This document shows positions 29,959 through 49,509 of a stretch of 64,000 bases of DNA, piece after piece. The DNA lies in the NCBI GenBank assembly GCA_035501155.1, contig DATJWO010000046.1, forward strand, positions 182-64,181, given 5' to 3'. Below the pieces are notes generated by a model that saw only the letters and a program-made list of their open reading frames with translations, was not told where the DNA came from and ran no database searches. The stretch comes from Bryobacteraceae bacterium (GTDB lineage: Bacteria > Acidobacteriota > Terriglobia > Bryobacterales > Bryobacteraceae). Positions within the stretch are counted from its first letter, which is position 1, and each line of letters begins with the position of its first letter. Both the position numbers and the translations under genes were made by a program.

Positions 29959-30968
29959 CACGGACATTCTGTTTCGCAGCAAGCCTGGGACTGGCGGCGG
30001 TCGCCGCGCTCGCCCAGACCGGCACTCCGACGGGCGCGATCAGTGGCAAGGTTTATGATTCCATCGGCGATCCGGTCGAAAAAGCCACCGTACAAGCCAA
30101 GAACGCGCAAACCGGCGCGACGTTCAAGGCCGTCAGTTCGAACGATGGCAAATACACGATCGAGCGCGTGCCCGCCGGCGTCTACGATGTCTCATCCGCA
30201 GTCCCCGCGCTGATGCCTTTCGCACGGAAGGACGTCGATGTGAAAGCGTCGGAAACCGCGACGCTCGACATCCACTTCAAGGACACCACGCAGCTCAATA
30301 CTCTGGGCGAAGATCGCGAGCACGCTCTCGCCGACATGAAGCGCCATGTGACCGACACCAGTCCGGCGCCGCGCACCGCTGACGGGCATCCCGACCTGTC
30401 GGGCGTCTGGTGGCGGCCCAACACCGTCGATCCCGGCCACCCCGAGTTCCTGCCCGCAGCGATGGCGATCACCAAGCAACGCCTCGCAGAGAACGGCAAA
30501 AGCAGCCCGCAGGCGCACTGTCTGCCTTCCGGCCCCTTGCGCTATGGCCCGCTCTGGGAGTTCGTCCAGAGCAAGGATTTCCTGGTTTATATCTCGGATG
30601 ACGAAAGCCCGGGCTTCCATCAGATTTATATCGACGGCCGCGGACATCCCGCCGATCCGAACCCCGCCTGGTACGGCCATTCCATCGGCCATTGGGACGG
30701 CGACACGCTGGTGGTGGATCGCGTGGCCTTCGACCCGCGCGTCTGGCTGGATCAAGCGTCGCACCCGCACTCCGACATGCTTCACATCGTCGAGCGCTAC
30801 CACCGCCGCGACGTCGGGCACATGGAGATCGAAACCACAGTCGACGATCCGGGCGTCTTAGCCAAGCCCTGGACCGTCAAAAGCGAGGCCGACCTGGCGC
30901 ACGAAGAAATCCTCGAGTTCATCTGCCAGGAAAACAATCGCGACATCACGCATCTGGTGGGCAAGTAA
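29955..30968 (+). CDS. Exported protein with N-terminal carboxypeptidase-regulatory-like domain; C-terminal domain unknown
   Basis: Signal peptide ...LGLAAVAALAQ, then ISGKVYDSIGDPVEKATVQAKNAQTG...DGKYTIERVPAGVYDV (CarboxypepD_reg signature). ATGA overlap with the upstream gene. Confidence 0.7.
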   Translation: MTRTFCFAASLGLAAVAALAQTGTPTGAISGKVYDSIGDPVEKATVQAKNAQTGATFKAVSSNDGKYTIERVPAGVYDVSSAVPALMPFARKDVDVKASETATLDIHFKDTTQLNTLGEDREHALADMKRHVTDTSPAPRTADGHPDLSGVWWRPNTVDPGHPEFLPAAMAITKQRLAENGKSSPQAHCLPSGPLRYGPLWEFVQSKDFLVYISDDESPGFHQIYIDGRGHPADPNPAWYGHSIGHWDGDTLVVDRVAFDPRVWLDQASHPHSDMLHIVERYHRRDVGHMEIETTVDDPGVLAKPWTVKSEADLAHEEILEFICQENNRDITHLVGK

Positions 30969-30979
30969 ACGCAGGCCCT

Positions 30980-32716
30980 ATGATCGAAACCGACGTCCTG
31001 ATCGTCGGCAGCGGGCCTGCCGGATCTTCCGCCGGCCTGATGCTGAGCACCTACGGGATCCCCAACCTCATCGTCACCAAGTACGGCTGGCTGGCCGACA
31101 CGCCTCGCGCGCATCTCACCAATCAACGAACGATGGAAATTCTGCGCGATTTAGGCATCGAGGCCGAGGCCGTCGCCCAGGCCACGCCGCAACACCTGTT
31201 GGGCCACACCGCCTTCTGCACCAGTCTCGCGGGCGAGGAACTGGGCCGCCTCCAGACTTTCGGAACCGACCCGCGGAGCCGGGCGAATCATCAGCTCGCC
31301 AGTCCCTGCTCCACCTGCGATCTGCCGCAAAACCTACTCGAACCGATCCTACTCGGCGCTGCCGCCACGCGCGGCACCAAGGTCCGGTTTGACACCGAGT
31401 ATCTTTCGTCACAACAGGACGCCGACGGCGTTACGGCCGAGCTTCGCGACCGCGTCTCCGGCCAGAGCTATCGAATCCGTGCCAAGTATTTGCTCGGCGC
31501 TGACGGCAGCCGCAGCAAAGTCGCCGAGGATGCGAGCTTGCCCATGGAAGGAAAGATGGGCGTGGCGGGCAGCATCAATATCGTCTTCCGGGCCGACCTG
31601 GCGAAGTACGTGGAGTACCGTCCTAGCGTCCTGTATTGGGTGCTGCAGCCCGGTTCGGACATCGGCGGCGTCGGCATGGGCGTCATCCGGATGGTGCGCC
31701 CCTGGCACGAGTGGCTGGCGATCTGGGGCTACGACATCAATGCCGGAGAACCACAGCTCGACGACGCTGCCGCGGAAGGAATCGTCCGCAACCTCATCGG
31801 CGATCCCGACGTGCCCATTCAAATCCGGTCGACGTCGCTATGGACCGTGAACGACCTGTATGCCACGCGCTACTCGAATGGCCGCGTGTTCTGCATGGGA
31901 GACGCGGTGCACCGGCACCCGCCCATGAACGGTCTCGGCTCCAACACCTCGATTCAGGATTCGTACAATCTCGCCTGGAAGCTGGCGCTGGTGCTGAAGG
32001 GCAAAGCCAGCCCATCGCTGCTCGATACGTATAACGAAGAACGGGCGCCCATTGGGCGGCAGATCGTCAAGCGCGCGAACAAGAGCATCGAAGAGACCGG
32101 TCCCATTTTCGAAGCCTTGGGACTGCACGATACCACGGAAGCCGCGCAAATGCGGCGCAACATGGAAGCGCGCAAGGCCAACACGCCGGACGCCGCGATC
32201 CAGCGCGAAAAGCTGCGTAAGGCAATCGCGCATAAATGCTATGAGTTCAATACACACGGCGTGGAGATGAACCAGCGCTACTGTTCGGCCGCGGTGGTTC
32301 CCGACGGTACGCCGGAGCCGCTCTTCGATCGCGATGCGGAGCTCCATTACCATCCCACCACGTGGCCCGGCGCGCGCCTGCCGCATGTCTGGCTGCAAAA
32401 AAACGGCCGGCCGATATCCACGCTGGACGTTGCCGGCAAGGGCCGTTTCGCAGTCCTCACCGGTATCGGCGGCGAAGGATGGGTGGAAGCGGCGCGGAAA
32501 GTTTCCGCAACTTACGGAGTGGAAATCGCGGCTGTTGTCATCGGACCTGGACGCGATCTGACGGATCTCTACGGCGAATGGGCCAACGCGAGAGAGATTG
32601 CCGAGTCGGGTTGCGTGTTGGTAAGGCCGGATGCCCATGTTGGATGGCGTGCAGCCGAATGCGGGGACGAGGAAAATCGCCTCGCGGAAGCGGTGGGTCG
32701 CATCCTGGGCCGTTAG
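30980..32716 (+). CDS. FAD-dependent aromatic-ring monooxygenase (phenol/2,4-dichlorophenol hydroxylase-like, PheA/TfdB family)
   Basis: Start moved to ATG 30980 (MIETDVLIVGSGPAGSSAG, GxGxxG). The FAD motif is GDAVHRHPPMNGLGSNTSIQD. The long C-terminal extension is typical of the family. Confidence 0.85.
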   Translation: MIETDVLIVGSGPAGSSAGLMLSTYGIPNLIVTKYGWLADTPRAHLTNQRTMEILRDLGIEAEAVAQATPQHLLGHTAFCTSLAGEELGRLQTFGTDPRSRANHQLASPCSTCDLPQNLLEPILLGAAATRGTKVRFDTEYLSSQQDADGVTAELRDRVSGQSYRIRAKYLLGADGSRSKVAEDASLPMEGKMGVAGSINIVFRADLAKYVEYRPSVLYWVLQPGSDIGGVGMGVIRMVRPWHEWLAIWGYDINAGEPQLDDAAAEGIVRNLIGDPDVPIQIRSTSLWTVNDLYATRYSNGRVFCMGDAVHRHPPMNGLGSNTSIQDSYNLAWKLALVLKGKASPSLLDTYNEERAPIGRQIVKRANKSIEETGPIFEALGLHDTTEAAQMRRNMEARKANTPDAAIQREKLRKAIAHKCYEFNTHGVEMNQRYCSAAVVPDGTPEPLFDRDAELHYHPTTWPGARLPHVWLQKNGRPISTLDVAGKGRFAVLTGIGGEGWVEAARKVSATYGVEIAAVVIGPGRDLTDLYGEWANAREIAESGCVLVRPDAHVGWRAAECGDEENRLAEAVGRILGR

Positions 32717-32928
32717 CGCGGGACCCGCCTCTTTGGTTCGCGCTTCCGCGCAAAGCTGCGGGCAGCCATCTCGAGGCCCACGCGGTCGATCTGCTCCAGC
32801 GCGCGGCACTGCTCATCGGGCAACCCGGCGCGCGCAGCTTCATCGTAAGGCGCATCCAGAAATCGCCGCCGCGCTTCCGCATCCACGTAAATCTTGGCAA
32901 GGAATCGTTCCAACGCCGGAGAATTCAT
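32713..32928 (-). CDS. 71-aa helical protein coupled to the DUF692 gene (LigA-subunit/Nif11-like pattern; function unknown)
   Basis: MNSPALERFLAKIYVDAEARRRFLDAPYDEAARAGLPDEQCRALEQIDRVGLEMAARSFARKREPKRRVPR. Its ATG overlaps the DUF692 stop (ATGA). Confidence 0.6.
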   Translation of the reverse strand: MNSPALERFLAKIYVDAEARRRFLDAPYDEAARAGLPDEQCRALEQIDRVGLEMAARSFARKREPKRRVPR

Positions 32929-33767
32929 GCTGCCGCCTTCTCCGCCCGGCCGCGCGCCATCGCCCGCCGCGCGCGATCCAGTTGCGCAAGCAAATGCGCC
33001 ATCGCCGGGTACGATCCGTCGCGTTCCAAGATCACCGTCAGCGGATTCGGACACCGCCGCGCCAGTTCCGTCAGCAAATCGTAAACCGGATCGGGCGGAT
33101 CGTGGAGATGATCGTCCAGCAGCCGCCGGTTCGCCTCGCCATCTTCGATCCACTTCCCGCCCGCGATGTGCACCTGATGCACTCGGTCCAGCCGCAGCCG
33201 CGCAAGCGATTTTTCCGCCAGCGCGCCAAAGTTCACGGAATTCGCGTATAGATTGTGCAGGTCCAACAACAGGCGCGCGCCCGATGTGTCTAGCGTCTGA
33301 TTGATCCACTCAGGCTCGTCGAGATCGCTCGCCGGCGGATCGATCAGCGTCGCGATGTTCTCCACCAGCGGCAGGCTTCCCACCACCGCCCGCGCCCGGT
33401 CCAGATTGGCCGCCGTGCTATCGATGGTCGCCCGGGTTCGCGGCGGCGCGGCCAGATGACCAATCTCGATCCCGCCCGCCCGAACAAACGCAAGATGTTC
33501 CGACCAGCATTCCGGCCGCACTCTCTCGACTAACCGCGCCATCTTGGCCAGCCGCTTTTCATCAACGCGCACCGTCGAGGCAAGCCCCAGCCCGACTCCG
33601 TGCAGCACTACCGGCCGCTGCGCCGCCAATGTCTGAATCGCGCGAGCGCGCGCCGCCGAATCGAAGTAATCGTCCGCGATCACTTCCAACACATCAATCT
33701 CGTCGAGATGCGCGAAGATTCCAGCAGCCAGCTCCGGACGCCAGCCCAATCCCACACGGTCCATCAT
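32925..33767 (-). CDS. DUF692 family multinuclear non-haem iron oxidative enzyme (MNIO; MbnB/TglH/ChrH/BufB superfamily)
   Basis: 280 aa from ATG 33767 (MMDRVGLGWRPEL). The ordered landmarks LHGVGL, WSEHLAF, LVENIA, LLLDLHNLYAN, HQVHIAGG, LDDHLH and ILERD match the DUF692 TIM-barrel metal-ligand contexts. The start lies 4 nt after the upstream stop, with GGGAG as SD. Confidence 0.88.
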   Translation of the reverse strand: MMDRVGLGWRPELAAGIFAHLDEIDVLEVIADDYFDSAARARAIQTLAAQRPVVLHGVGLGLASTVRVDEKRLAKMARLVERVRPECWSEHLAFVRAGGIEIGHLAAPPRTRATIDSTAANLDRARAVVGSLPLVENIATLIDPPASDLDEPEWINQTLDTSGARLLLDLHNLYANSVNFGALAEKSLARLRLDRVHQVHIAGGKWIEDGEANRRLLDDHLHDPPDPVYDLLTELARRCPNPLTVILERDGSYPAMAHLLAQLDRARRAMARGRAEKAAA

Positions 33768-33771
33768 GTTT

Positions 33772-34656
33772 TTAGCTCCCGCACCCGCCACACCCGCCTC
33801 CGCAACCACCGCCTCCACATCCGCTGCCGCACGATGACCCGCATGACGAACCGCAGCCGCTACTCGCCGATTTCGCCGCGCGCGGATAGAGCGTCCGAAC
33901 GTGCGGAAAGACGGCCGCCGGCATCGCCGCCACTCCAAACACGGCGGCCAGCATGAGTACGTCGCTCGCGTCCGCGCCCGGCGTGAAGAGCGACGCCCGG
34001 TCTTTCAGTCCGGTGAACAGCGTCCGCAGACTTGCAACCATCGCCGCACCGCGTCGTGTCAACCGCGGCTTCGCCACCTTGAACGCAACAACCGCGAACG
34101 CAATCGCCAGTACGAAGAGAAACCCGATGTTCGTCCTTCCGCGTGCGAGGGCGACTAGAATCTTGATGATCGCAACCGCCCACATCCCCGCAATCGCCAC
34201 CACGAGCCGCAACGTCTGCGCGCTCTTGGTTGAAAGGCCGGGAACCAGGTCCAGTTGAGCGAGGCTACGCTCGTACGCCTTGGTGTCGCGGTCGAATTCG
34301 CGTGCTTTGAAGACCAGCACCGCCTCGGCGGGCTGGGCGAAGAAATTACAGAGATGCTGTTCCAGCGGAAGGCGCAACATGGAAGGCGGCCGTTCCCGCA
34401 CCGCCGATACTTTCGTCCCGGAAGCCTGCAGGAAACCCCGATCGATCAGCGAAACGGTGGCCACGCGCAGGACCTCGTTCTGACCGCCGCGCAGATAAGC
34501 GATCTGGTAAGGATCCGACAGGTCCATCTGCGGTGGATCGGAAGGCTGCCCCGCGTAGCGCAGCAGATACAGAATGAACAGCACCACCGCGCCCAGCGCG
34601 ATGTAGAACACCAGGAACTCCGGCCCGCGCAGATCGAACGGCGACGGCATGTTCAA
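33772..34656 (-). CDS. TIGR04222-type membrane protein with C-terminal 7-Cys Gly/Ser tail
   Basis: 294 aa (TTG 34656; alternative ATG 34650). Family-like segments PFDLRGPEFLVFYIALGAVVLFILY and DPYQIAYLRGGQNEVLRVATVSLIDRGFL. About four hydrophobic helices. It ends in SSGCGSSCGSSCGSGCGGGGCGGGCGGCGS. Confidence 0.8.
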   Translation of the reverse strand: MNMPSPFDLRGPEFLVFYIALGAVVLFILYLLRYAGQPSDPPQMDLSDPYQIAYLRGGQNEVLRVATVSLIDRGFLQASGTKVSAVRERPPSMLRLPLEQHLCNFFAQPAEAVLVFKAREFDRDTKAYERSLAQLDLVPGLSTKSAQTLRLVVAIAGMWAVAIIKILVALARGRTNIGFLFVLAIAFAVVAFKVAKPRLTRRGAAMVASLRTLFTGLKDRASLFTPGADASDVLMLAAVFGVAAMPAAVFPHVRTLYPRAAKSASSGCGSSCGSSCGSGCGGGGCGGGCGGCGS

Positions 34657-35396
34657 TCGAGCGCATCGGCGCGCGTGCGCAGCCGCGCCGCCAATTCGAT
34701 CATATGGAACAGCGTCGCATCCGCTGCGTACGCGGAAAGCGTCCGCGTTTCGCGAGCCTCCGAAATGCGGGCCAGTACTTCGTCCCAGCCAGGCTCTCCG
34801 AATCCCTGCACAAATTGGATCAGCGCTTCCTTGGGTGGGAGTTGGGGCTTAGCTTCCAGCTCCAGCAGCGTCGCCGCGCAAGAACGCAGCGGGCCCGCCG
34901 AGTCCGCCACCAGTTCGGAGACGCGCTCCGGCGTTGTACCGCGCTCTACGTAGGCTTCGCGCAGCCGCAGAGTCAGGTTCAGCAGCACTTGTTTCACGCG
35001 TAAGAGCACCGCCGCCCGCGGGATCGTCGATGCTTCAAAAGGATCGGCGCCGTACAGCACGCGGTGGCGCCGTGCAATATCGGAAAATTTCTGCCCGAAC
35101 AGCTCCTGCGCCTGCCCGACTTCCGATTCGAGCAGAAACATTGCCGTCATTCGAATTGCCGCACGCGCCACCCCGAATGGTCCGCGGATCGCATCCGCCT
35201 TCGCCGCATCGAACGACGACAACACCAGCAGCAAATTCACGTCCGAAGCCGCACGCAGACGGGCCTCCGCGCCGCTGCCGTAAAGGATGATGGACTTGAG
35301 ATTCGCGCCGAACGCCTGCAACGCCGAACGCGTGAAATCGGCCAGCACCCTTGCGACGTTCTCCGGAAGTCCCTCCAGCTCCTTCGGAGCGATCAT
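34653..35396 (-). CDS. Pol-beta-superfamily nucleotidyltransferase domain protein with helical C-terminal domain
   Basis: 247 aa. The hG[GS]-x10-D-h-X-h motif reads ILYGSGAEARLRAASDVNLLLVL, so the second carboxylate position is Asn. The stop overlaps the TIGR04222 gene start. GGAG lies 9 nt upstream of the ATG. Confidence 0.75.
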   Translation of the reverse strand: MIAPKELEGLPENVARVLADFTRSALQAFGANLKSIILYGSGAEARLRAASDVNLLLVLSSFDAAKADAIRGPFGVARAAIRMTAMFLLESEVGQAQELFGQKFSDIARRHRVLYGADPFEASTIPRAAVLLRVKQVLLNLTLRLREAYVERGTTPERVSELVADSAGPLRSCAATLLELEAKPQLPPKEALIQFVQGFGEPGWDEVLARISEARETRTLSAYAADATLFHMIELAARLRTRADALD

Positions 35397-35411
35397 GGTT
35401 AAATCTCCGGA

Positions 35412-35636
35412 TCAGATCTCCGGATAAAACTCGAAGAACGCGTCCAGCGACTGCAGCAGTTGCTTGCGGATCTCGTCCTCTCCGCCTTCGATCAGGTGCA
35501 TGGTCACATGCGCCTTCTTGCCGCTTTTCAGCGTGACCTCCGCGTCATCCACTTTGTCGAGTTCGTCCGCGGGAAGCAGCCGCATGCCGTACACCAGCGC
35601 CAGTTTGGCCATGCCCCATTCTAGCCGGACGTTCAC
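35412..35636 (-). CDS. Hypothetical 66-74-aa protein at the head of the NTase/TIGR04222/DUF692 gene string
   Basis: ORF with a GTG start at 35636 (alternative ATG 35612). It ends 15 nt before the NTase start. I recognise no family. Confidence 0.45.
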   Translation of the reverse strand: MNVRLEWGMAKLALVYGMRLLPADELDKVDDAEVTLKSGKKAHVTMHLIEGGEDEIRKQLLQSLDAFFEFYPEI

Positions 35637-44397: not shown

Positions 44398-44474
44398 TGG
44401 TGCCGGCGGCAGGACTCGAACCTGCGACCTGCGGATTATGAGACCGCCGCTCTAACCACCTGAGCTACACCGGC
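44398..44474 (-). tRNA. tRNA with CAT anticodon (elongator Met, or Ile2 if lysidinylated), CCA encoded
   Basis: Reverse complement: GCCGGTG-TA-GCTC-AGGTGGTTA-GAGC-G-GCGGT-CTCATAA-TCCGC-AGGTC-GCAGG-TTCGAGT-CCTGC-CGCCGGC-A-CCA. G1:C72 is paired, so it is not an initiator. Confidence 0.88.
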
Positions 44475-44538
44475 AAAGTATTGCTTTTTTCAGGTTAGGC
44501 AGAGCGGGCGGGACATGTCAACTCGAAGATATTTAATC

Positions 44539-44569
44539 ATTAAATCCGAAATTGTATACTTGACAAACC
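44539..44569. repeat. Left inverted repeat
   Basis: The core CGAAATTGTATACTTGACAAACC (44547-44569) equals the reverse complement of 49479-49501 except for one base. Weaker similarity (ATTAAATC versus ATTTAAT) extends outward. Confidence 0.6.
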
Positions 44570-44637
44570 TTAGCCTCAAGTATGTTATTTACATTACATG
44601 CTTGGAGCTAAGCCAGCCTCACGTGAATCTTACTAGT

Positions 44638-44713
44638 GTGCTGGGAGCGCGTCTGCCGTGGGAACACTCGATAACACGGTGTTCCACACTGGGGGCAGAT
44701 CGCCTCCCAGCAC
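44638..44713. other. 76-nt long imperfect hairpin just inside the left inverted repeat
   Basis: GTGCTGGGAG (44638-47) pairs with CTCCCAGCAC (44704-13). Inner helices are TCTGCC/GGCAGA and GTGGGAACAC/GTGTTCC(A)CAC. The loop is 11 nt (TCGATAACACG). Confidence 0.5.
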
Positions 44714-44998
44714 CAGTGATTCTACGCCGGTTTCGTTTCTGGGACGATCCCAACATTACGTGATTTTCGCTGCTTGAGCAATTTGTGGGCCGCATGTTTC
44801 AGCGGCCCCTTAGCTTTGATTTGCTTTACCGCGCTCAGCAATGCTCTACACTGCGATGCTAGGCTACGCTGTGCTTTGGATCGAACTCCCTTAGTGTAGC
44901 CGAATCGGCGTAAAATGAAAACAGCCGGACCGTGAATCCGGCTGTTCTTAATCTTGGTGGGCGATCTCCATTTCAAGGTAACACGGAGGTGTGCCCAA

Positions 44999-45319
44999 AT
45001 GCGAACGACCTGCCGATGCGCGATGATCCTGGCTATGGTGATTTCTGCTATAGCTGCGCAAGATGGATCGAAACGCGATGCCAAGATTACGATCACCGTG
45101 GGGCCAAGCGATTCCCCGCTCAACGCTGCGTCTTGCAAAGAGTCTTCCTACGGAAATTTACACAACGGCGACCGCACCAAATTGACACCGGGAGAGATCG
45201 GCGAGTACGTAGCGCGTGTAATTAAAGAAGGAAACATCCTTACCATCTACCCCGAGAGCAAGGACGGCATCTTTGTCTACGCACGGTGTCCCAACAGCGA
45301 ACCTAAGGCGTCTCAGTGA
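44999..45319 (+). CDS. Small exported hypothetical protein (106 aa)
   Basis: ATG 44999 is preceded by GGAGG 9 nt upstream. Signal peptide MRTTCRCAMILAMVISAIAAQ. No family recognised. Confidence 0.6.
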   Translation: MRTTCRCAMILAMVISAIAAQDGSKRDAKITITVGPSDSPLNAASCKESSYGNLHNGDRTKLTPGEIGEYVARVIKEGNILTIYPESKDGIFVYARCPNSEPKASQ

Positions 45320-45749
45320 TGCTTTTGACGCTTGGCTTCTCGAACTTGGCGCAGACTTCGAACGGCGGCGGTGCCGTAAAGTCGGCTGGGGATTGGTAAG
45401 CGACAGCAAAACCTTCTCCGGCTGCATTGATGGTGGCAACTGAATATCTACCAGCTACTGCATTCGCAGGAATCAGCACAGTGACAGTGAAGACCCTAGG
45501 AGAAGATGGATGCTCCGAAGGGCTACCAAATCTATTGAGGTGATCCGATGTCTGTGATGCGTCGGTGGTAACCAATACATTCACGTTCGTAATGGTGTTC
45601 GCGTATCTTCCTTCCATCGTAATGGTGAACGTCGGACCCTTTCCTGGTGCGTAGCACGGCTTAGTGGTTGATTGAGCAAGCGCCGTCGAGCAGGCGGCGA
45701 TTCCCGCCAGCGCGAACAGCGCCTTCGTAAAACAAGCAATTGGTTTCAT
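45303..45749 (-). CDS. Hypothetical lipoprotein (148 aa)
   Basis: AAGGAG lies 5 nt upstream of the ATG. The signal peptide has a lipobox: ...FALAGIAAC|S. No family recognised. Confidence 0.6.
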   Translation of the reverse strand: MKPIACFTKALFALAGIAACSTALAQSTTKPCYAPGKGPTFTITMEGRYANTITNVNVLVTTDASQTSDHLNRFGSPSEHPSSPRVFTVTVLIPANAVAGRYSVATINAAGEGFAVAYQSPADFTAPPPFEVCAKFEKPSVKSITETP

Positions 45750-45984
45750 GTTGTCTCCTTATGAGCACACTTTCCCTGTTGCATTCCCGGCAGGTTTTGT
45801 TTTACGATTGGGGTGGCTACCAACCATCCCATCGCTTGCAACCCGAGGTGAACAAGGCCTCGGGCCTCCCGGCAGCTACAACAAATCAGCTAATAAATGT
45901 TCGATTCACTGACACTGCATCATTGTAGCATTTAGACCGAAATAGGCCACTAAATTTTGCCGTGAAATGGTAGTCTAAAAGTGT

Positions 45985-46105
45985 CCGGCCATGGCGGAAT
46001 TGGCAGACGCGCCGGGTTGTATGGCGGCCTAGAATTGCTGGGCCACGATGCATCCCGGTGCCGAGTCAAATCGGCGTGGGGGTTCAAGGCCCGCTGGCCG
46101 GACCA
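45985..46105 (+). tRNA. Atypical class-II (Leu-type) tRNA-like gene with ~30 extra nt in the anticodon loop (pseudogene or non-canonical RNA)
   Basis: CCGGCCA-TG-GCG-GAATTGGCAGA-CGC-G-CCGGG-[37 nt]-CCCGG-TGCCGAGTCAAATCGGCGT-GGGGG-TTCAAGG-CCCGC-TGGCCGG-A-CCA. The acceptor stem is a perfect 7 bp, and the D-arm and long variable arm are Leu-like. The loop is 37 nt instead of 7, and position 1 is C. Confidence 0.5.
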
Positions 46106-46306
46106 CTACTTTAAGCGGTACCTTCCAGGGCCCATGCGAACAAACAACTCAGTGTAGCCTCCCGGATTGCCGACCCGATGTTTTGGAAGGAAGGTGCCAG
46201 CCCAATGGATCGCAAGCACCGCGTTGACTTCGGACGGCGAGAATATCGAGCCGAGTTTACCGCTTTTTGCGGCTTCTCGTATTCTTCGAATCGTCTCGCG
46301 TTCCAC
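46106..46306 (-). CDS. Hypothetical 66-aa protein (possible winged-helix-like C-terminus)
   Basis: GTG-start ORF ending ...GGYTELFVRMGPGRYRLK. Its stop abuts the 3' end of the tRNA-like gene. A 55-aa GTG ORF (46424 downward) overlaps its start in another frame, so this could be a frameshifted gene. Confidence 0.35.
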   Translation of the reverse strand: MERETIRRIREAAKSGKLGSIFSPSEVNAVLAIHWAGTFLPKHRVGNPGGYTELFVRMGPGRYRLK

Positions 46307-46438
46307 TTGATGAAATTCCTGCCTTCTTCGGTTGCTTCGGTTCTGGCTTGATCTTCAGGATATCCGTGACTGCTTCGTCAAAGGTTAACGGGCGCAAAGA
46401 CAGTTGGCGCTCTTTTTTGTTCACAGTATCATTGTATT

Positions 46439-46511
46439 GCGCCCGTAGCTCAGGTGTATAGAGCAGTTCTATCGCAAGAACAGGTCGTGGGTTAGAATCC
46501 CACCGGGCGCA
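46439..46511 (+). tRNA. Aberrant tRNA-like gene (Arg-type acceptor, CGC in a 6/8-nt anticodon loop, A56, no CCA); probable pseudogene
   Basis: GCGCCCG-TA-GCTC-AGGTGTATA-GAGC-A-GTTCT-ATCGCA-AGAAC-AGGTC-GTGGG-TTAGAAT-CCCAC-CGGGCGC-A. The anticodon arm is 16 nt instead of 17. The T-loop is TTAGAAT rather than TTCGAAT. Confidence 0.45.
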
Positions 46512-46664
46512 TACAGGACTATCTTGTCACCAACTCTGTGATCGTGTTATACTTCAATCGCGATAGAACTGCGAATGCCTTGAGCGGGGTGTAAATCCTG
46601 ATCGGTTCGCACGGCTAGTCTTGTGGGTCTAGACCTTGAAATCTTGTACTCATACTAGCCGGGT

Positions 46665-47162
46665 TCAAGCCTGCAATGGCCTACCGATCCTCCGAAGCAT
46701 TTCGTAGCACGTCACGTACTCCACGCCAAACTGCTTGCACACGTTAGGGACCTTCAGTTTTTTTGAGTCGGCTCCTACGAGTTTCTCGTGAGTGACCACA
46801 ATCCCCTCTGTAGCGGCAGCGCAAGCAACTACCCAGAGGTCCGCTCCTTTGAGAAATAGGGCGACTTCCGCGGAAGGGAATTTGCCCTTATCGATGATGT
46901 CGTCGGCAATCGTCGAAAAGTAGTTTTGCATCCGCTCATCTGGCTCAACGAACAACTCTCCGCTGCGTTTTTTTGTGTTCGCCCAATCCGCCAGATCGTC
47001 GGCCCCGGTAGCTAGTTCGTTATATACCATCATCGGAGATCGTACGATACCTTTTGCGACACCCTCCGAGATTACGTCCCAGAAGCCAGGAGCAATATCG
47101 AACGCATAGTAGAGATTCTTGGCTTGCAGAAACACATTACTATCAAGCCAAAAGGTGGGCAT
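46665..47162 (-). CDS. DUF4411 family PIN-like nuclease (putative toxin/effector)
   Basis: 165 aa. MPTFWLDSNVFLQAKNLYYAFDIAPGFWDVI...VYNEL...DDLADW matches the DUF4411 N-terminal signature. There is 1 nt between the upstream stop and its ATG. Confidence 0.75.
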   Translation of the reverse strand: MPTFWLDSNVFLQAKNLYYAFDIAPGFWDVISEGVAKGIVRSPMMVYNELATGADDLADWANTKKRSGELFVEPDERMQNYFSTIADDIIDKGKFPSAEVALFLKGADLWVVACAAATEGIVVTHEKLVGADSKKLKVPNVCKQFGVEYVTCYEMLRRIGRPLQA

Positions 47163-47163
47163 C

Positions 47164-48339
47164 CTATTGCGCTTTCCCCTCCGCGTAAGCGATCACTTTG
47201 GCGACCGTTGGAACTTTGACATTTAGTAATTGGGCCGCTTCGCGGTATAACGCGTGACCGTCATTGACGGCCCCGATGACGGTCCGTGTGAATGTTGCGC
47301 TATTCCGCACGAAGAGTGTTGGGAAAAAGTTTCCTCCCTCGCGCTCCTCTTCTTGCAACCTGTATTGGCCTTCGACGGTTTTATATTCGCGTAGGAATGC
47401 TTCCCGATCAATCTTTCCAAGATCAAAGCCACGCCTCAGTGCAACAAGACGGCTCACCTTGAAGTGGCGGGAGACGACTTGGATATTCATTTCCACGGAC
47501 AACTGTTGATCCCAATGGCTCTTGAACTCTTCAGAGGGAACCAATACCTCTGCCGCTATGTGATCACAGAGTACTTCCACCCGGCTGTCCAAGACGTCGG
47601 TGATCCGATTCATCTTTTCGTCAGAGACGCCACTTTGACCAATCCAGATATGTGCTAGTTCGTGAGCCAGGGTGAATATCTGCGCTGCGCGCGCATCCGC
47701 TCCATTTACAAATATAAGAGGAGCAAACTCATCGTTGATCGTAAATCCACGGAACTCTTCCGGTTTCAGTCTGCGATGGGGATTACCTCCAACAATTCCG
47801 CTCTTGAGAACCAGAATGCCGATTGCTTCGGATCTCTTGACGATCTCGCTCAGAAATCCTTCCCAGTTCGACGCTTCTCCCCTGACCGCTGTACTTATGC
47901 CGATTGTTTCTCGGATGCTACGGGCGATACGGATGGAATCCGTAGAATCCCTGAACTGTCCTACAAATGGTACACGCGCTCGGTTCTCCTCGCGAAGAAA
48001 CTCGCGGTACCATTGCTGCTTGATGATCGCATCGTTCAATACGTCAATCAAGTCCGCAGAAGGCATCGAGCCTTTGAACTGGGTGCCCGATCTGAAATCA
48101 GCTATGGGCAACGTCTCGTTTGGAGGTTCGGATAAAAACAAATAACCGAATGGTATGTGTAATGCTCCAGCAACATGTTCTGCTTGCCGTATAGAGGGTC
48201 GCCTGTCTCCCTGTTCCCACGCTGTAAGACGATCAGGCCGCGTATTGACTCGCTGCGCTAGTTCATCCACGGACAGACCAGAGCGTTGCCGCGCCCAGCG
48301 CAATACGCTAGGACTAATGAATGCTGGTGTTGCGCTCAT
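47164..48339 (-). CDS. XRE-HTH + ImmA/IrrE family zinc metallopeptidase
   Basis: 391 aa with GGAGG 9 nt upstream. N-terminal HTH (LRWARQRSGLSVDELAQRVNTRPDRLTAWEQG) and HELAHIW (HExxH) in the peptidase domain. Confidence 0.85.
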   Translation of the reverse strand: MSATPAFISPSVLRWARQRSGLSVDELAQRVNTRPDRLTAWEQGDRRPSIRQAEHVAGALHIPFGYLFLSEPPNETLPIADFRSGTQFKGSMPSADLIDVLNDAIIKQQWYREFLREENRARVPFVGQFRDSTDSIRIARSIRETIGISTAVRGEASNWEGFLSEIVKRSEAIGILVLKSGIVGGNPHRRLKPEEFRGFTINDEFAPLIFVNGADARAAQIFTLAHELAHIWIGQSGVSDEKMNRITDVLDSRVEVLCDHIAAEVLVPSEEFKSHWDQQLSVEMNIQVVSRHFKVSRLVALRRGFDLGKIDREAFLREYKTVEGQYRLQEEEREGGNFFPTLFVRNSATFTRTVIGAVNDGHALYREAAQLLNVKVPTVAKVIAYAEGKAQ

Positions 48340-48449
48340 TGTGCTATCCTCCGTTCAGGAGGTGCATCCAGAGACGCACTCATACTGTATTGCTCTCGCG
48401 AGGCGTTCGCAGCGCCACAGAGAGCACTAGGCACCCAACCAAAGATTTC

Positions 48450-48480
48450 TAAAAAGCCGTGATTCGCAGTCACGGCTTTT
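48450..48480 (-). terminator. Bidirectional rho-independent terminator downstream of the transposase gene
   Basis: AAAAAGCCGTGA-ttcgcag-TCACGGCTTTTT. The stem is flanked by an A-run and a T-run, and it begins 7 nt after the transposase stop. Confidence 0.6.
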
Positions 48481-48486
48481 TGTTTT

Positions 48487-49452
48487 CTATGCACTCATTC
48501 CGGGTGATTCCCGGTATAGCAATCTCTTTCCTTCAACCTGCTTGATGGCCAGATCGCGGCGTTCCACGTCCGTCATCTTCCGGGTATTGTATCGGAAGTC
48601 GAACTCGCTCAGGTAACGGTGCAGGTGGCGCTTGCCAACGTGATGGTAGACACCGTTCACGCCGCGCTTCAAGATGCCGAAGAAGCCTTCGATGGAATTC
48701 GTGGAGATCATCACGCCGTCCTCGTAGCGGACGTACTCGCCCGCGCTGTGGTTCACCATGTCGTGACGGTATTCTTTGTGGGTGAACTTCAACGCCGTTC
48801 CGCTGTCGGTCATGACGTGCGCGGACTCATCGACCATCTGGCGAACGACAGGTTTCAGGGTCTTGGCAGTGACCTTTTCCACGTGCATGGATTGAACCCG
48901 ACCGCCGCGCTGGAGGACGCTGACGACCGCTTCCTTGCCTTCAAAAGGGGCAGGCCGATCCTGTTCACGCTCTCCGGGCTTCGTCGCGTGCGGGAAGCGG
49001 TTGCGCCGCTTGCCGCCGACATAGGTTTCGTCGATTTCGATTGTGCCAGTGAGCTTTGATGATAACGGCTCCTGCGCCATAGCCCAACGAATCCGATGCG
49101 CCATGAACCATGCGCTTTTGTAGGTCACGCCAAGCATGCGGTGAAGTTGATGGGCGCTCATGCCCTTCTTGCTGGCGCACAGAAGATGGAAGGCGTAGAG
49201 CCACTTGTTCAGCGGGATGTGGCTGTCTTCCATGATCGTGCCGACCGTGACGCTGAATTGCTGTCCGCAAGGCTTGCATTTCCACACGCCCTTTCGGGCG
49301 TGGGTCTTCTTGCCTTCCTTCGGCTCCAGCTTCGTAGCGTTGTTTTCCGCCTCGCAGTGCGGACATACCGGGCCGTTCGGCCAGCGCTTCGCTTCTAGGA
49401 ATTGGCGTGCCTTTTCTTCATCTTGGAAGTGAGGAGCAACTAGGTCTGCCAT
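48487..49452 (-). CDS. IS1595 family (ISXO2-like) DDE transposase
   Basis: 321 aa. N-terminal zinc ribbon (CPHCE...CKPCG), HTH-like ...KKGMSAHQLHRMLGVTYKSAWFMAHRIR, and DDE contexts EIDETYVGG, VMTDS and NSIEGFF. Confidence 0.9.
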   Translation of the reverse strand: MADLVAPHFQDEEKARQFLEAKRWPNGPVCPHCEAENNATKLEPKEGKKTHARKGVWKCKPCGQQFSVTVGTIMEDSHIPLNKWLYAFHLLCASKKGMSAHQLHRMLGVTYKSAWFMAHRIRWAMAQEPLSSKLTGTIEIDETYVGGKRRNRFPHATKPGEREQDRPAPFEGKEAVVSVLQRGGRVQSMHVEKVTAKTLKPVVRQMVDESAHVMTDSGTALKFTHKEYRHDMVNHSAGEYVRYEDGVMISTNSIEGFFGILKRGVNGVYHHVGKRHLHRYLSEFDFRYNTRKMTDVERRDLAIKQVEGKRLLYRESPGMSA

Positions 49453-49458
49453 GCTTCA

Positions 49459-49488
49459 ATTATGCGCCGGACCATCCTGGTTTGTCAA
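49459..49488 (-). promoter_or_regulatory. Candidate transposase promoter inside the right inverted repeat
   Basis: On the minus strand, TTGACA (49488-83), an 18-nt spacer, then CATAAT (49464-59). The -10 ends 6 nt before the ATG, which implies a near-leaderless mRNA. Confidence 0.4.
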
Positions 49489-49509
49489 GTATATAATTTC
49501 GATTAAATC
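49479..49509. repeat. Right inverted repeat
   Basis: The reverse complement of 49479-49501 is CGAAATTATATACTTGACAAACC, a 22/23 match to 44547-44569. Confidence 0.6.

Follow-up and report, generated by a model that had tools for sequence, protein, structure and literature searches.

To our knowledge, the multinuclear non-haem iron oxidative enzymes (MNIOs, family DUF692) characterised so far all act on short leader-bearing peptides, and they do so with a partner of the DUF2063 type, the MbnC type or the RRE type (RRE, recognition element for RiPPs, peptides synthesised ribosomally and modified post-translationally). MNIOs of the BufB, FonB and HvfB type install 5-thiooxazoles and prefer Cys-Gly dyads; the base in these 5-thiooxazole-forming enzymes is an Asp (D249 in FonB), and their products serve copper detoxification (PMC13097082, 2026). 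Here we describe a locus on a stretch of 64,000 nucleotides from a Bryobacteraceae bacterium of the Acidobacteriota (assembly GCA_035501155.1, contig DATJWO010000046.1, positions 182 to 64,181), called the window in the following, in which an MNIO gene forms a cassette with genes for a nucleotidyltransferase (NTase)-like protein, a TIGR04222 membrane protein and a protein of 71 aa. Our preferred reading, to which we give a probability of roughly 0.55, is that the multi-iron enzyme and the 71-aa protein as its partner would oxidise Cys-Gly dyads in the tail of the membrane protein, which would become a membrane-anchored metal-binding tail.

Among Cys proteins that have no signal peptide and are encoded upstream of MNIO genes, 40% are TIGR04222 proteins according to a survey of MNIO neighbourhoods from 2025, which remarked on their C-terminal segments rich in Cys and in Ser/Gly and proposed subsets of these as MNIO substrates (PMC12452194). 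The TIGR04222-MNIO clusters of that survey contain no DUF2063 genes, at least 10% of them have so-called 'PME-type 2' partners, and many are seemingly partnerless. The name 'adjamnio-V' is given there to very small, functionally unassigned proteins whose genes follow those of MNIOs; a nucleotidyltransferase or an NHLP/LigA-like protein does not appear in the survey (PMC12452194). The 71-aa family described here might be 'adjamnio-V'; in the part of the survey's accession lists that was compared, no homologue of the 71-aa protein occurs.

The window locus is an instance of this class. As in the surveyed clusters (PMC12452194), a TIGR04222 gene precedes the MNIO gene, the Cys residues of its product are C-proximal and a DUF2063 gene is missing; the MNIOs of such clusters are reported to be close to the bufferin-associated ones. 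The preliminary description of this DNA had called the pairing uncharacterised, which is still correct in the biochemical sense, but the pairing is not unknown, being catalogued as a hypothesis in the survey of 2025 (PMC12452194). Our literature search revealed no paper linking MNIOs with a nucleotidyltransferase in this sense. New are the strict four-gene cassette, a leader-like partner which is translationally coupled or even fused to the enzyme, an NTase family with a D-x-N pocket, and the quantified conservation of the Cys-Gly tail. The system is a real, uncharacterised variant of the bufferin/captophorin-type systems.

A fixed cassette of four genes

The locus was followed through other bacteria from both of its ends. 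In a forward test one genome per species was scanned with the MNIO, which yielded 80 loci at 55-88% identity, and in a reverse test another 80 loci at 45-92% identity were retrieved from metagenomes with a profile of the NTase-like protein. In total these 160 related loci come from about ten phyla and carry the genes for the NTase-like protein, the TIGR04222 protein, the MNIO and the 71-aa protein in this fixed order. The forward loci belong to Acidobacteriota, Verrucomicrobiota, Pseudomonadota, Myxococcota, Rokubacteria, Actinomycetota, Armatimonadota and others, and include Burkholderiales, among them cultured Janthinobacterium and Cupriavidus. When the window proteins were compared with the 80 forward loci by tblastn, gene order and strand turned out to be the same nearly everywhere; the nearest relative is a metagenome-assembled genome (MAG) of the Bryobacteraceae with an MNIO 88% identical to that of the window. 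In the reverse test, in which only contigs long enough to show the respective gene were counted, the TIGR04222 gene lies immediately downstream in 51 of 51 cases, and the MNIO and 71-aa genes follow in 40 of 41 and 32 of 33. The adjacency of DUF692 and TIGR04222 genes, the conservation of which had been named as a check, is therefore very strongly supported from both directions.

In the forward test the NTase-like gene was found in 56 of the 67 loci with enough upstream sequence, so that about 16% are without it. Ten forward loci contain no NTase-like gene at all, and no common substitute is found among these ten. They do not form a group of their own but are scattered among NTase-positive kin (the MNIO of locus L072, for example, is 78% identical to those of L012 and L014), and the tails of their TIGR04222 proteins show no visible difference. 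Because the gene is absent from scattered loci among close relatives, it is a losable accessory, exclusive to the cassette, while the core consists of the TIGR04222 protein, the MNIO and the 71-aa protein. A separate case is a locus from a Chthoniobacterales MAG (L015, 5218-5680), in which only the genes for the MNIO and the 71-aa protein are complete, the NTase-like and TIGR04222 proteins being truncated to 96 aa and 53 aa; either a decay of the cassette or a fault in the assembly may account for this.

An all-against-all clustering of the flanking ORFs (open reading frames) within 4 kb in 78 loci gave no family that occurs in more than six loci. The unit therefore comprises exactly four genes in variable surroundings.

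In the window five minus-strand ORFs occupy positions 32713-35636, and their tight packing is as described before, every junction reading as claimed. The TGA stop of an ORF of 74 aa is followed by a 15-nt spacer, tccggagatttaacc, which contains GGAG, and then by the ATG of the NTase-like gene at 35396. The TGA of the latter overlaps the TTG start of the 294-aa TIGR04222 ORF (gaTTGA), for which an alternative ATG exists 6 nt further 3', at 34650. Between the TAA of this ORF and the ATG of the 280-aa MNIO ORF there are only four nucleotides (aaac), with GGGAG inside the last tail codons, and an ATGA overlap joins the MNIO stop to the start of the 71-aa ORF. Each cassette gene is single-copy in the window. 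A consensus scan detected no sigma-70-like promoter, and an Rfam scan over 30-40 kb returned a tRNA-Arg only.

The 74-aa ORF had been counted, together with the 71-aa one, as a tiny accessory part. This holds for the 71-aa protein, but tblastn finds the 74-aa ORF only in the two closest relatives (L001 and L081), and it was rejected as a part of the cassette. The same applies to the upstream DinB gene, which is not linked to the cassette across the loci. The small ORF does exist, though its likelier start is the ATG at 35612, which would shorten the product to 66 aa. In comparison to L001 it shows eight synonymous and three non-synonymous codon differences, and because of this ratio the ORF at 35412-35636 is probably a real lineage-specific gene. 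Its acidic product contains no Cys and has no family match in Pfam or NCBIfam. Only 15 nt separate the ORF from the NTase-like gene downstream, and one transcript may cover it together with the cassette and the DinB gene.

The iron enzyme and the 71-aa protein

A match to PF05114 (MbnB_TglH_ChrH) with E = 1e-63 and 215.5 bits (cut-off 25) covers residues 5-270 of the 280-aa protein, which correspond to profile positions 2-262 of 263. The landmark motifs which had suggested a DUF692 protein are all present in the expected order (LHGV at 55, SEHL at 89, VENI at 135, LDLHN at 168, HIAGG at 200, DDHLHD at 218 and ILERDG at 246), and the sequence can be aligned with two DUF692 proteins of solved structure, 3BWW and TglH (8HCI), so the DUF692 identity was borne out by the profile search. 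The alignment also shows that the metal-ligand residues are invariant or nearly so: at least 73 out of 74 cassette MNIOs keep H56, H91, E136, D169, N172, H200, D219, H220, H222, E248 and D250. For the assignment of these motif residues to particular Fe sites we take the MbnB structures to be valid here as well. In NCBIfam the best model is BufB (NF050167), of which the window enzyme, unlike that of bufferins, does not reach the equivalog cut-off (182.6 bits versus 310), and the second-best is HvfB (NF003818, 134.5 bits versus 360). By its profile scores the 280-aa protein may be called BufB-like, and it belongs to no curated equivalog.

The 71-aa protein belongs to a family for which a search of 1.84 billion representative sequences gave 873 clusters. 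Its alignment-based AlphaFold 2 (AF2) model is a five-helix bundle (pLDDT 86), and the top Foldseek matches of this model are Os1348 (6LK7, TM-score 0.67-0.69, root mean square deviation 2.3-2.4 Å) and the leader domain of SonA, a borosin precursor, while a profile search against PDB sequences pointed to the LigA domain of gallate dioxygenase, SonA and nitrile hydratase alpha. Taken by itself the window protein stays below the cut-offs of NF038399 (20 bits versus 40) and LigA (PF07746, 14.8 versus 25.3) and matches Frankia_peptide weakly. Across the family, the Os1348 NHLP-clan model NF038399 is matched by 58 of 58 members (best E 1.3e-8) and LigA by 55 of 58 (best E 1.4e-7); fewer members match the Frankia_peptide, Nif11 and NHLP-related peptide models. 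With the Os1348, SonA and NHLP/Nif11/LigA leaders the protein shares the small all-helical fold, as predicted, and a signature of the form ...F(L)xDP...aGL..eE..aL..iD... It differs from Os1348/SonA-type leaders in that it has no cleavage motif and no core, usually no Cys, and is coupled or fused to the enzyme.

We also considered whether this could be a DUF2063-like partner (PME). This was rejected: the 71-aa protein has no corresponding Pfam or NCBIfam match, none of the 58 family members matches DUF2063 at E<=0.1, and neither 3DEE nor TglI came up in the profile search against the PDB or in Foldseek. In this respect the window appears to differ, going by their description, from the surveyed clusters with DUF2063-like 'PME-type 2' partners (PMC12452194).

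The 71-aa gene is tied to the MNIO gene in two ways. In most loci the two genes share the -4 overlap (ATGA), and in some they are fused in frame, the small domain then forming the C-terminus of the MNIO; this is the case in the genome loci L039, L046 (Cupriavidus) and L080 as well as in the database proteins P0353 (25 contigs), P0401 and P0343, with P0310 as a comparable but partial case. Translational coupling and gene fusion are a classic sign of physical partners. Because of this combination the 71-aa protein is most likely a partner subunit of the MNIO with a leader-like fold. The earlier statement that a partner protein is lacking is therefore probably wrong, the 71-aa protein being near-universal in the cassette, coupled and sometimes fused; its predicted fold is indeed not that of DUF2063 or MbnC. 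For P0401 (683 aa) a triple fusion of TIGR04222 protein, MNIO and 71-aa protein was considered and rejected, as the middle part is a frameshifted tail region and only the MNIO and the 71-aa domain are in frame. The repetitive GC-rich tail DNA appears to be prone to frameshifts or mis-assembly, which could inflate the number of apparent fusions in the database.

Since the families matched by the 71-aa protein (Os1348, SonA, NHLP, Nif11, Frankia_peptide) are RiPP precursors or leaders, one may ask if it is a precursor itself, made of leader and core, with the TIGR04222 protein as a membrane partner, exporter or immunity component. Fusions of precursor and enzyme are known from borosins such as OphMA. 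Membrane proteins as MNIO partners exist as well, e.g. ChrI with ChrH (PMC10214503), and some MNIOs modify non-Cys residues (PMC12452194). We nevertheless regard this as very improbable. The extension that follows helix 5 varies in the family from 3 to 47 aa (median 20) and is basic (31% Lys/Arg, 3% Asp/Glu), with no conserved motif, cleavage motif, core or C-terminal residue. The only candidate for a modified residue in the window protein, Cys41, is not conserved, and 43 out of 75 homologues have no Cys at all, on which grounds a Cys-bearing precursor was rejected. Because so many homologues are without Cys and no core is conserved, the protein should not be the substrate of a Cys-directed enzyme, and it is in the Cys-directed BufB-like group that the MNIO is placed. 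A precursor role would moreover leave unexplained the strict set of 3-9 Cys-Gly dyads in the TIGR04222 tail.

A further similarity of the family concerns IniB, the N-terminal domain model of which (NF038175) is weakly matched by 45 of 58 members. In mycobacterial IniB a Gly-rich low-complexity region comes after the N-terminal domain, and a link between the helical domain of the 71-aa family and Gly-rich tails is possible.

The membrane protein and its Cys-Gly tail

The 294-aa protein is matched by the NCBIfam model TIGR04222 with E = 4.5e-29 and 101.7 bits (cut-off 43), residues 17-246 covering all 229 profile positions, in agreement with the family named in the preliminary description. A crude hydropathy scan gives four hydrophobic segments, the last of them marginal, which fits the about four transmembrane (TM) helices proposed before. 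Between TM1 and TM2 lies a soluble domain of about 115 aa with the motif DPYxIAYLRGG. This domain (34213-34551, minus strand) carries the near-invariant sequence DPYxIAYLRGGxxEALRVAxxSLIDRGLL, looks helix-turn-helix or winged-helix-like and could be the place where the enzyme complex docks. A profile search of PDB sequences, made to see whether it is a docking domain of the winged-helix or RRE type, returned only noise (E >=0.25), so that such an assignment would be speculative.

The part of the protein that draws attention is the C-terminal tail. In the window it contains eight Cys, each followed by Gly. All 70 full-length homologues (70/70) have such a Ser/Gly/Cys tail with 3-9 Cys (mean 5.9) in the last 50 aa, against about two Cys in the remainder of the protein, and Gly follows 372 of the 414 tail Cys (90%). 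In the last 40 residues Gly makes up 40%, Ser 28% and Cys 14.5%. The commonest ending is CGGCGS, found in 31 of 70 tails. In the 41 tails that end in CGGCG followed by S or G, the last ten residues are near-fixed and the codons vary (GGC/GGA/GGT/GGG for Gly, TGC/TGT for Cys). Because the residues are fixed while synonymous codons vary, selection seems to act on the peptide and not on a DNA repeat. Junctions and loci leave no room in the cassette for another small Cys-containing ORF; the tail is thus, as had been proposed, its sole conserved Cys-rich sequence, and no short Cys precursor fits in.

The locus can be compared with the bufferins and captophorins (BufABC, FonABC, HvfABC) at several levels. 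Both have a BufB-like MNIO with the same ligand set and the Asp of the ERD motif, the candidate substrate shows repeated Cys-Gly dyads (cf. the EGKCG repeats), and the enzyme gene comes directly after the substrate gene with a small partner gene next to it. In contrast to those systems, the candidate substrate is the tail of a protein with 3-4 TM segments and without Sec signal peptide or leader, the partner is the 71-aa NHLP/LigA-like protein and not a DUF2063-RRE protein, an NTase-fold gene is present and DoxX is absent. Another MNIO encoded beside a polytopic membrane protein is ChrH of the chryseobasin system with its neighbour ChrI. However, ChrI differs in fold and lacks a Cys-rich tail, and the peptide modified in that system, ChrA, is separate, whereas here there is no separate Cys peptide and it is the membrane protein itself that carries the Cys-rich sequence.

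From these comparisons we propose the following mechanism. The cytoplasmic MNIO, with its full ligand set and the ERD Asp, would form a complex with the 71-aa protein, which would replace the DUF2063-RRE partner. In the membrane protein encoded upstream, this complex would act on the tail and oxidise those Cys that belong to the repeated Cys-Gly dyads. If the enzyme behaves like BufB, FonB and HvfB, its nearest characterised clade, 5-thiooxazoles would be formed, and the tail would end up as a poly-thiooxazole chain anchored in the membrane and binding a metal, probably copper, in other words a tethered bufferin or captophorin. The 71-aa protein may use its basic C-terminal extension to keep the enzyme at the membrane.

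It might also be that the tail Cys remain plain thiolates of a metallothionein-like or redox type or are modified otherwise, and that the MNIO performs some other chemistry (oxazolone/thioamide formation, cross-linking, beta-carbon excision) on the tail or on a different substrate. MNIO chemistry is diverse (PMC10214503; PMC12452194), the window enzyme is below every equivalog cut-off, its partner is of a type unlike that in all characterised 5-thiooxazole systems, and TIGR04222 proteins also occur without an MNIO. On the other hand, ligand residues and ERD Asp are conserved, the closest models are BufB and then HvfB, the Cys-Gly dyads fit the reported preference of 5-thiooxazole-forming enzymes, and the tight operon, with no space for another small Cys-containing ORF, ties the tail to this enzyme. 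We therefore consider these alternatives quite unlikely.

Several points nevertheless speak against the formation of a thiooxazole tail by the MNIO and the 71-aa protein. As the enzyme falls under all equivalog cut-offs, its chemistry could differ, and the fold matches of the 71-aa protein are weak (Foldseek E 0.7, PDB profile E 0.04-0.09). The topology of the membrane protein raises a further difficulty. By crude hydropathy and positive-inside count the loop after TM3 is cytoplasmic, so that a periplasmic tail would require the marginal fourth segment to cross the membrane, and the homologues are divided in this respect (four TM predicted for 33, three TM for 29). The C-terminal segments of TIGR04222 proteins have been predicted to be periplasmic (PMC12452194), and with a periplasmic tail and a cytoplasmic MNIO the modification would have to precede translocation. 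In the same survey a third of the TIGR04222-bearing genomes have no MNIO and a quarter of the TIGR04222 proteins have no tail Cys (PMC12452194), from which it follows that the tail should also have an MNIO-independent role. Finally, the neighbouring genes in the window and in Janthinobacterium show no copper or other metal theme.

The nucleotidyltransferase-like gene and the surroundings

The AF2 model of the NTase-like protein (pLDDT 91.5) combines an N-terminal NTase fold with a C-terminal helical bundle. Foldseek assigns it to the neighbourhood of the aminoglycoside resistance enzymes AadA/ANT(3'')(9), AAD(9) and ANT(4') (E 1e-7 to 1e-4, TM-score 0.5-0.64), with AadA and AAD(9) at the top (E about 1e-7, TM-score about 0.6) and HalB and MntA next. 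In sequence searches there is no Pfam match, and the NCBIfam ANT models reach only 14-18 bits, in the N-terminal part, with cut-offs of 193-505. In a profile alignment with AadA, D52 coincides with the first catalytic Asp and N54 with the second. The pocket G40-S41...S51-D52-V-N54...E92 is invariant, the pattern GS..SD[VIL]N..E being present in 137 of 137 homologues; all 137 thus have D-x-N in place of the D-x-D of the two-carboxylate signature hG[GS]x9-13Dh[DE]h. The spacing from D52 to E92 is 40 residues, as from D47 to E87 in AadA, where E87, which was mutated in the E87Q structures 5LPA and 5LUH, is presumably the catalytic base.

With AadA/ANT(3'')(9), AAD(9) and ANT(4') the protein therefore has in common the two-domain architecture, the GS motif, the first Asp and the Glu spacing. 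It is different from AadA-type enzymes in its low identity (12-14%), in the change of the second Asp to Asn and in its context, an MNIO cassette and not a resistance element. A plasmid collection searched with the protein gave no match, and in the loci retrieved with its profile the family occurs only in this cassette. What had been described as an accessory nucleotidyltransferase is thus a cassette-specific accessory indeed, but the name nucleotidyltransferase is unsafe in view of the invariant D-x-N.

That the pocket is conserved throughout suggests that some ligand-binding or catalytic function has been retained, whereas the exchange of one metal-binding carboxylate speaks against two-metal transfer of the canonical kind. 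Judged from this pocket, the protein may act as an atypical one-metal nucleotidyltransferase on the Ser hydroxyls of the tail, or as a nucleotide-binding, nucleotide-dependent scaffold or holdase for it.

A stronger version would be that an active NTase nucleotidylates the tail Ser, either as an end modification or as an activation towards dehydroalanine and Cys addition, so that NTase and MNIO jointly build the tail. The AadA-like fold, the conserved GS...SD-x-N...E pocket with E92 spaced as E87 of AadA, the 28% Ser in the tails and the confinement of the family to the cassette are in line with this, and relatives of the same fold AMPylate proteins, such as MntA acting on HepT. We are not convinced, however, and hold joint building of the tail to be rather improbable, as the second metal-binding Asp is Asn in 137 of 137 homologues, the gene is missing from about 16% of the cassettes, scattered among close kin with tails alike, and the cassette encodes neither a cyclase nor a lyase. 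In Pol-beta-type NTases the loss of such an Asp normally abolishes two-metal catalysis.

One could go further and see in the cassette a reversed RiPP logic. The leader-like domain would then sit on the enzyme side, the tail of a polytopic membrane protein would be the substrate with its soluble domain for docking, and up to about nine membrane-tethered thiooxazoles would together serve metal binding or redox reactions; the NTase would contribute a step that depends on a nucleotide (nucleotidylation of Ser, or a gate for the translocation of the tail), for which there is no MNIO precedent. This extended scheme as a whole we consider unlikely, and we retain as preferred reading the oxidation of the Cys-Gly tail by the MNIO and its 71-aa partner.

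The positions of the cassette genes and of other features are listed in the table. The weak hairpin after the 71-aa ORF coincides with the 3' end of the convergent FAD monooxygenase gene.

Table. Positions in the window of the cassette genes and of other features, with the basis of each assignment
Feature	Position	Strand	Basis
NTase-fold accessory protein, 247 aa, AadA/ANT(3'')(9)-like, two predicted domains	34653..35396	-	AF2 model, Foldseek, profile alignment
TIGR04222 membrane protein, 294 aa, 3-4 hydrophobic segments	33772..34656	-	NCBIfam, hydropathy
C-terminal Ser/Gly/Cys tail, residues 263-294, SASSGCGSSCGSSCGSGCGGGGCGGGCGGCGS, candidate MNIO substrate	33775..33870	-	homologue tails
MNIO/DUF692 multinuclear non-haem iron enzyme, 280 aa, BufB-like	32925..33767	-	PF05114, NF050167
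71-aa NHLP/LigA-like five-helix protein (predicted), basic C-terminal extension, probable MNIO partner	32713..32928	-	AF2, Foldseek, HMMs
Weak terminator-like hairpin, about 20 nt past the 71-aa ORF stop	32678..32692	-	consensus scan only
Convergent FAD monooxygenase ORF	30692..32716	+	FAD_binding_3
Lineage-specific small ORF, 66 aa from ATG 35612 (74 aa from GTG 35636)	35412..35612	-	two relatives
IS1595-family transposase, in low-GC stretch	48487-49452	-	
HTH-ImmA/IrrE metallopeptidase gene, in low-GC stretch, directly followed by DUF4411 gene	47164-48339	-	
DUF4411 gene, in low-GC stretch	46665-47162	-	
Odd tRNA-like call, anticodon undetermined, in low-GC stretch	46438-46512		

The neighbours of the cassette in the window are genes for DinB, a glyoxalase-fold protein, AraC, a Zn-dependent alcohol dehydrogenase and the FAD monooxygenase; in Janthinobacterium they are mfd and genes for a HAD hydrolase, a beta-lactamase-fold protein, a pyridoxal phosphate enzyme and a radical SAM enzyme. 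At some distance from the cassette, positions 44398-49500 of the window are low in GC (0.52-0.555, in comparison to about 0.61 elsewhere). This stretch starts at a tRNA-Met gene (44398-44474) and looks like a small integrated mobile island with a toxin-antitoxin-like or defence-like pair.

If the preferred reading of the cassette is true, this would be the first MNIO to rewrite the tail of a true membrane protein, and its partner, a leader-like NHLP/LigA domain, would represent a new class of MNIO partners, with the four genes as a compact signature that can be searched for. The NTase-fold family with its D-x-N pocket, which had gone unrecognised so far, would likewise acquire a function. As the cassette is widespread in soil bacteria, a tethered thiooxazole metallophore could be a common but overlooked element of metal handling, and culturable hosts such as Janthinobacterium and Cupriavidus make this question directly testable.

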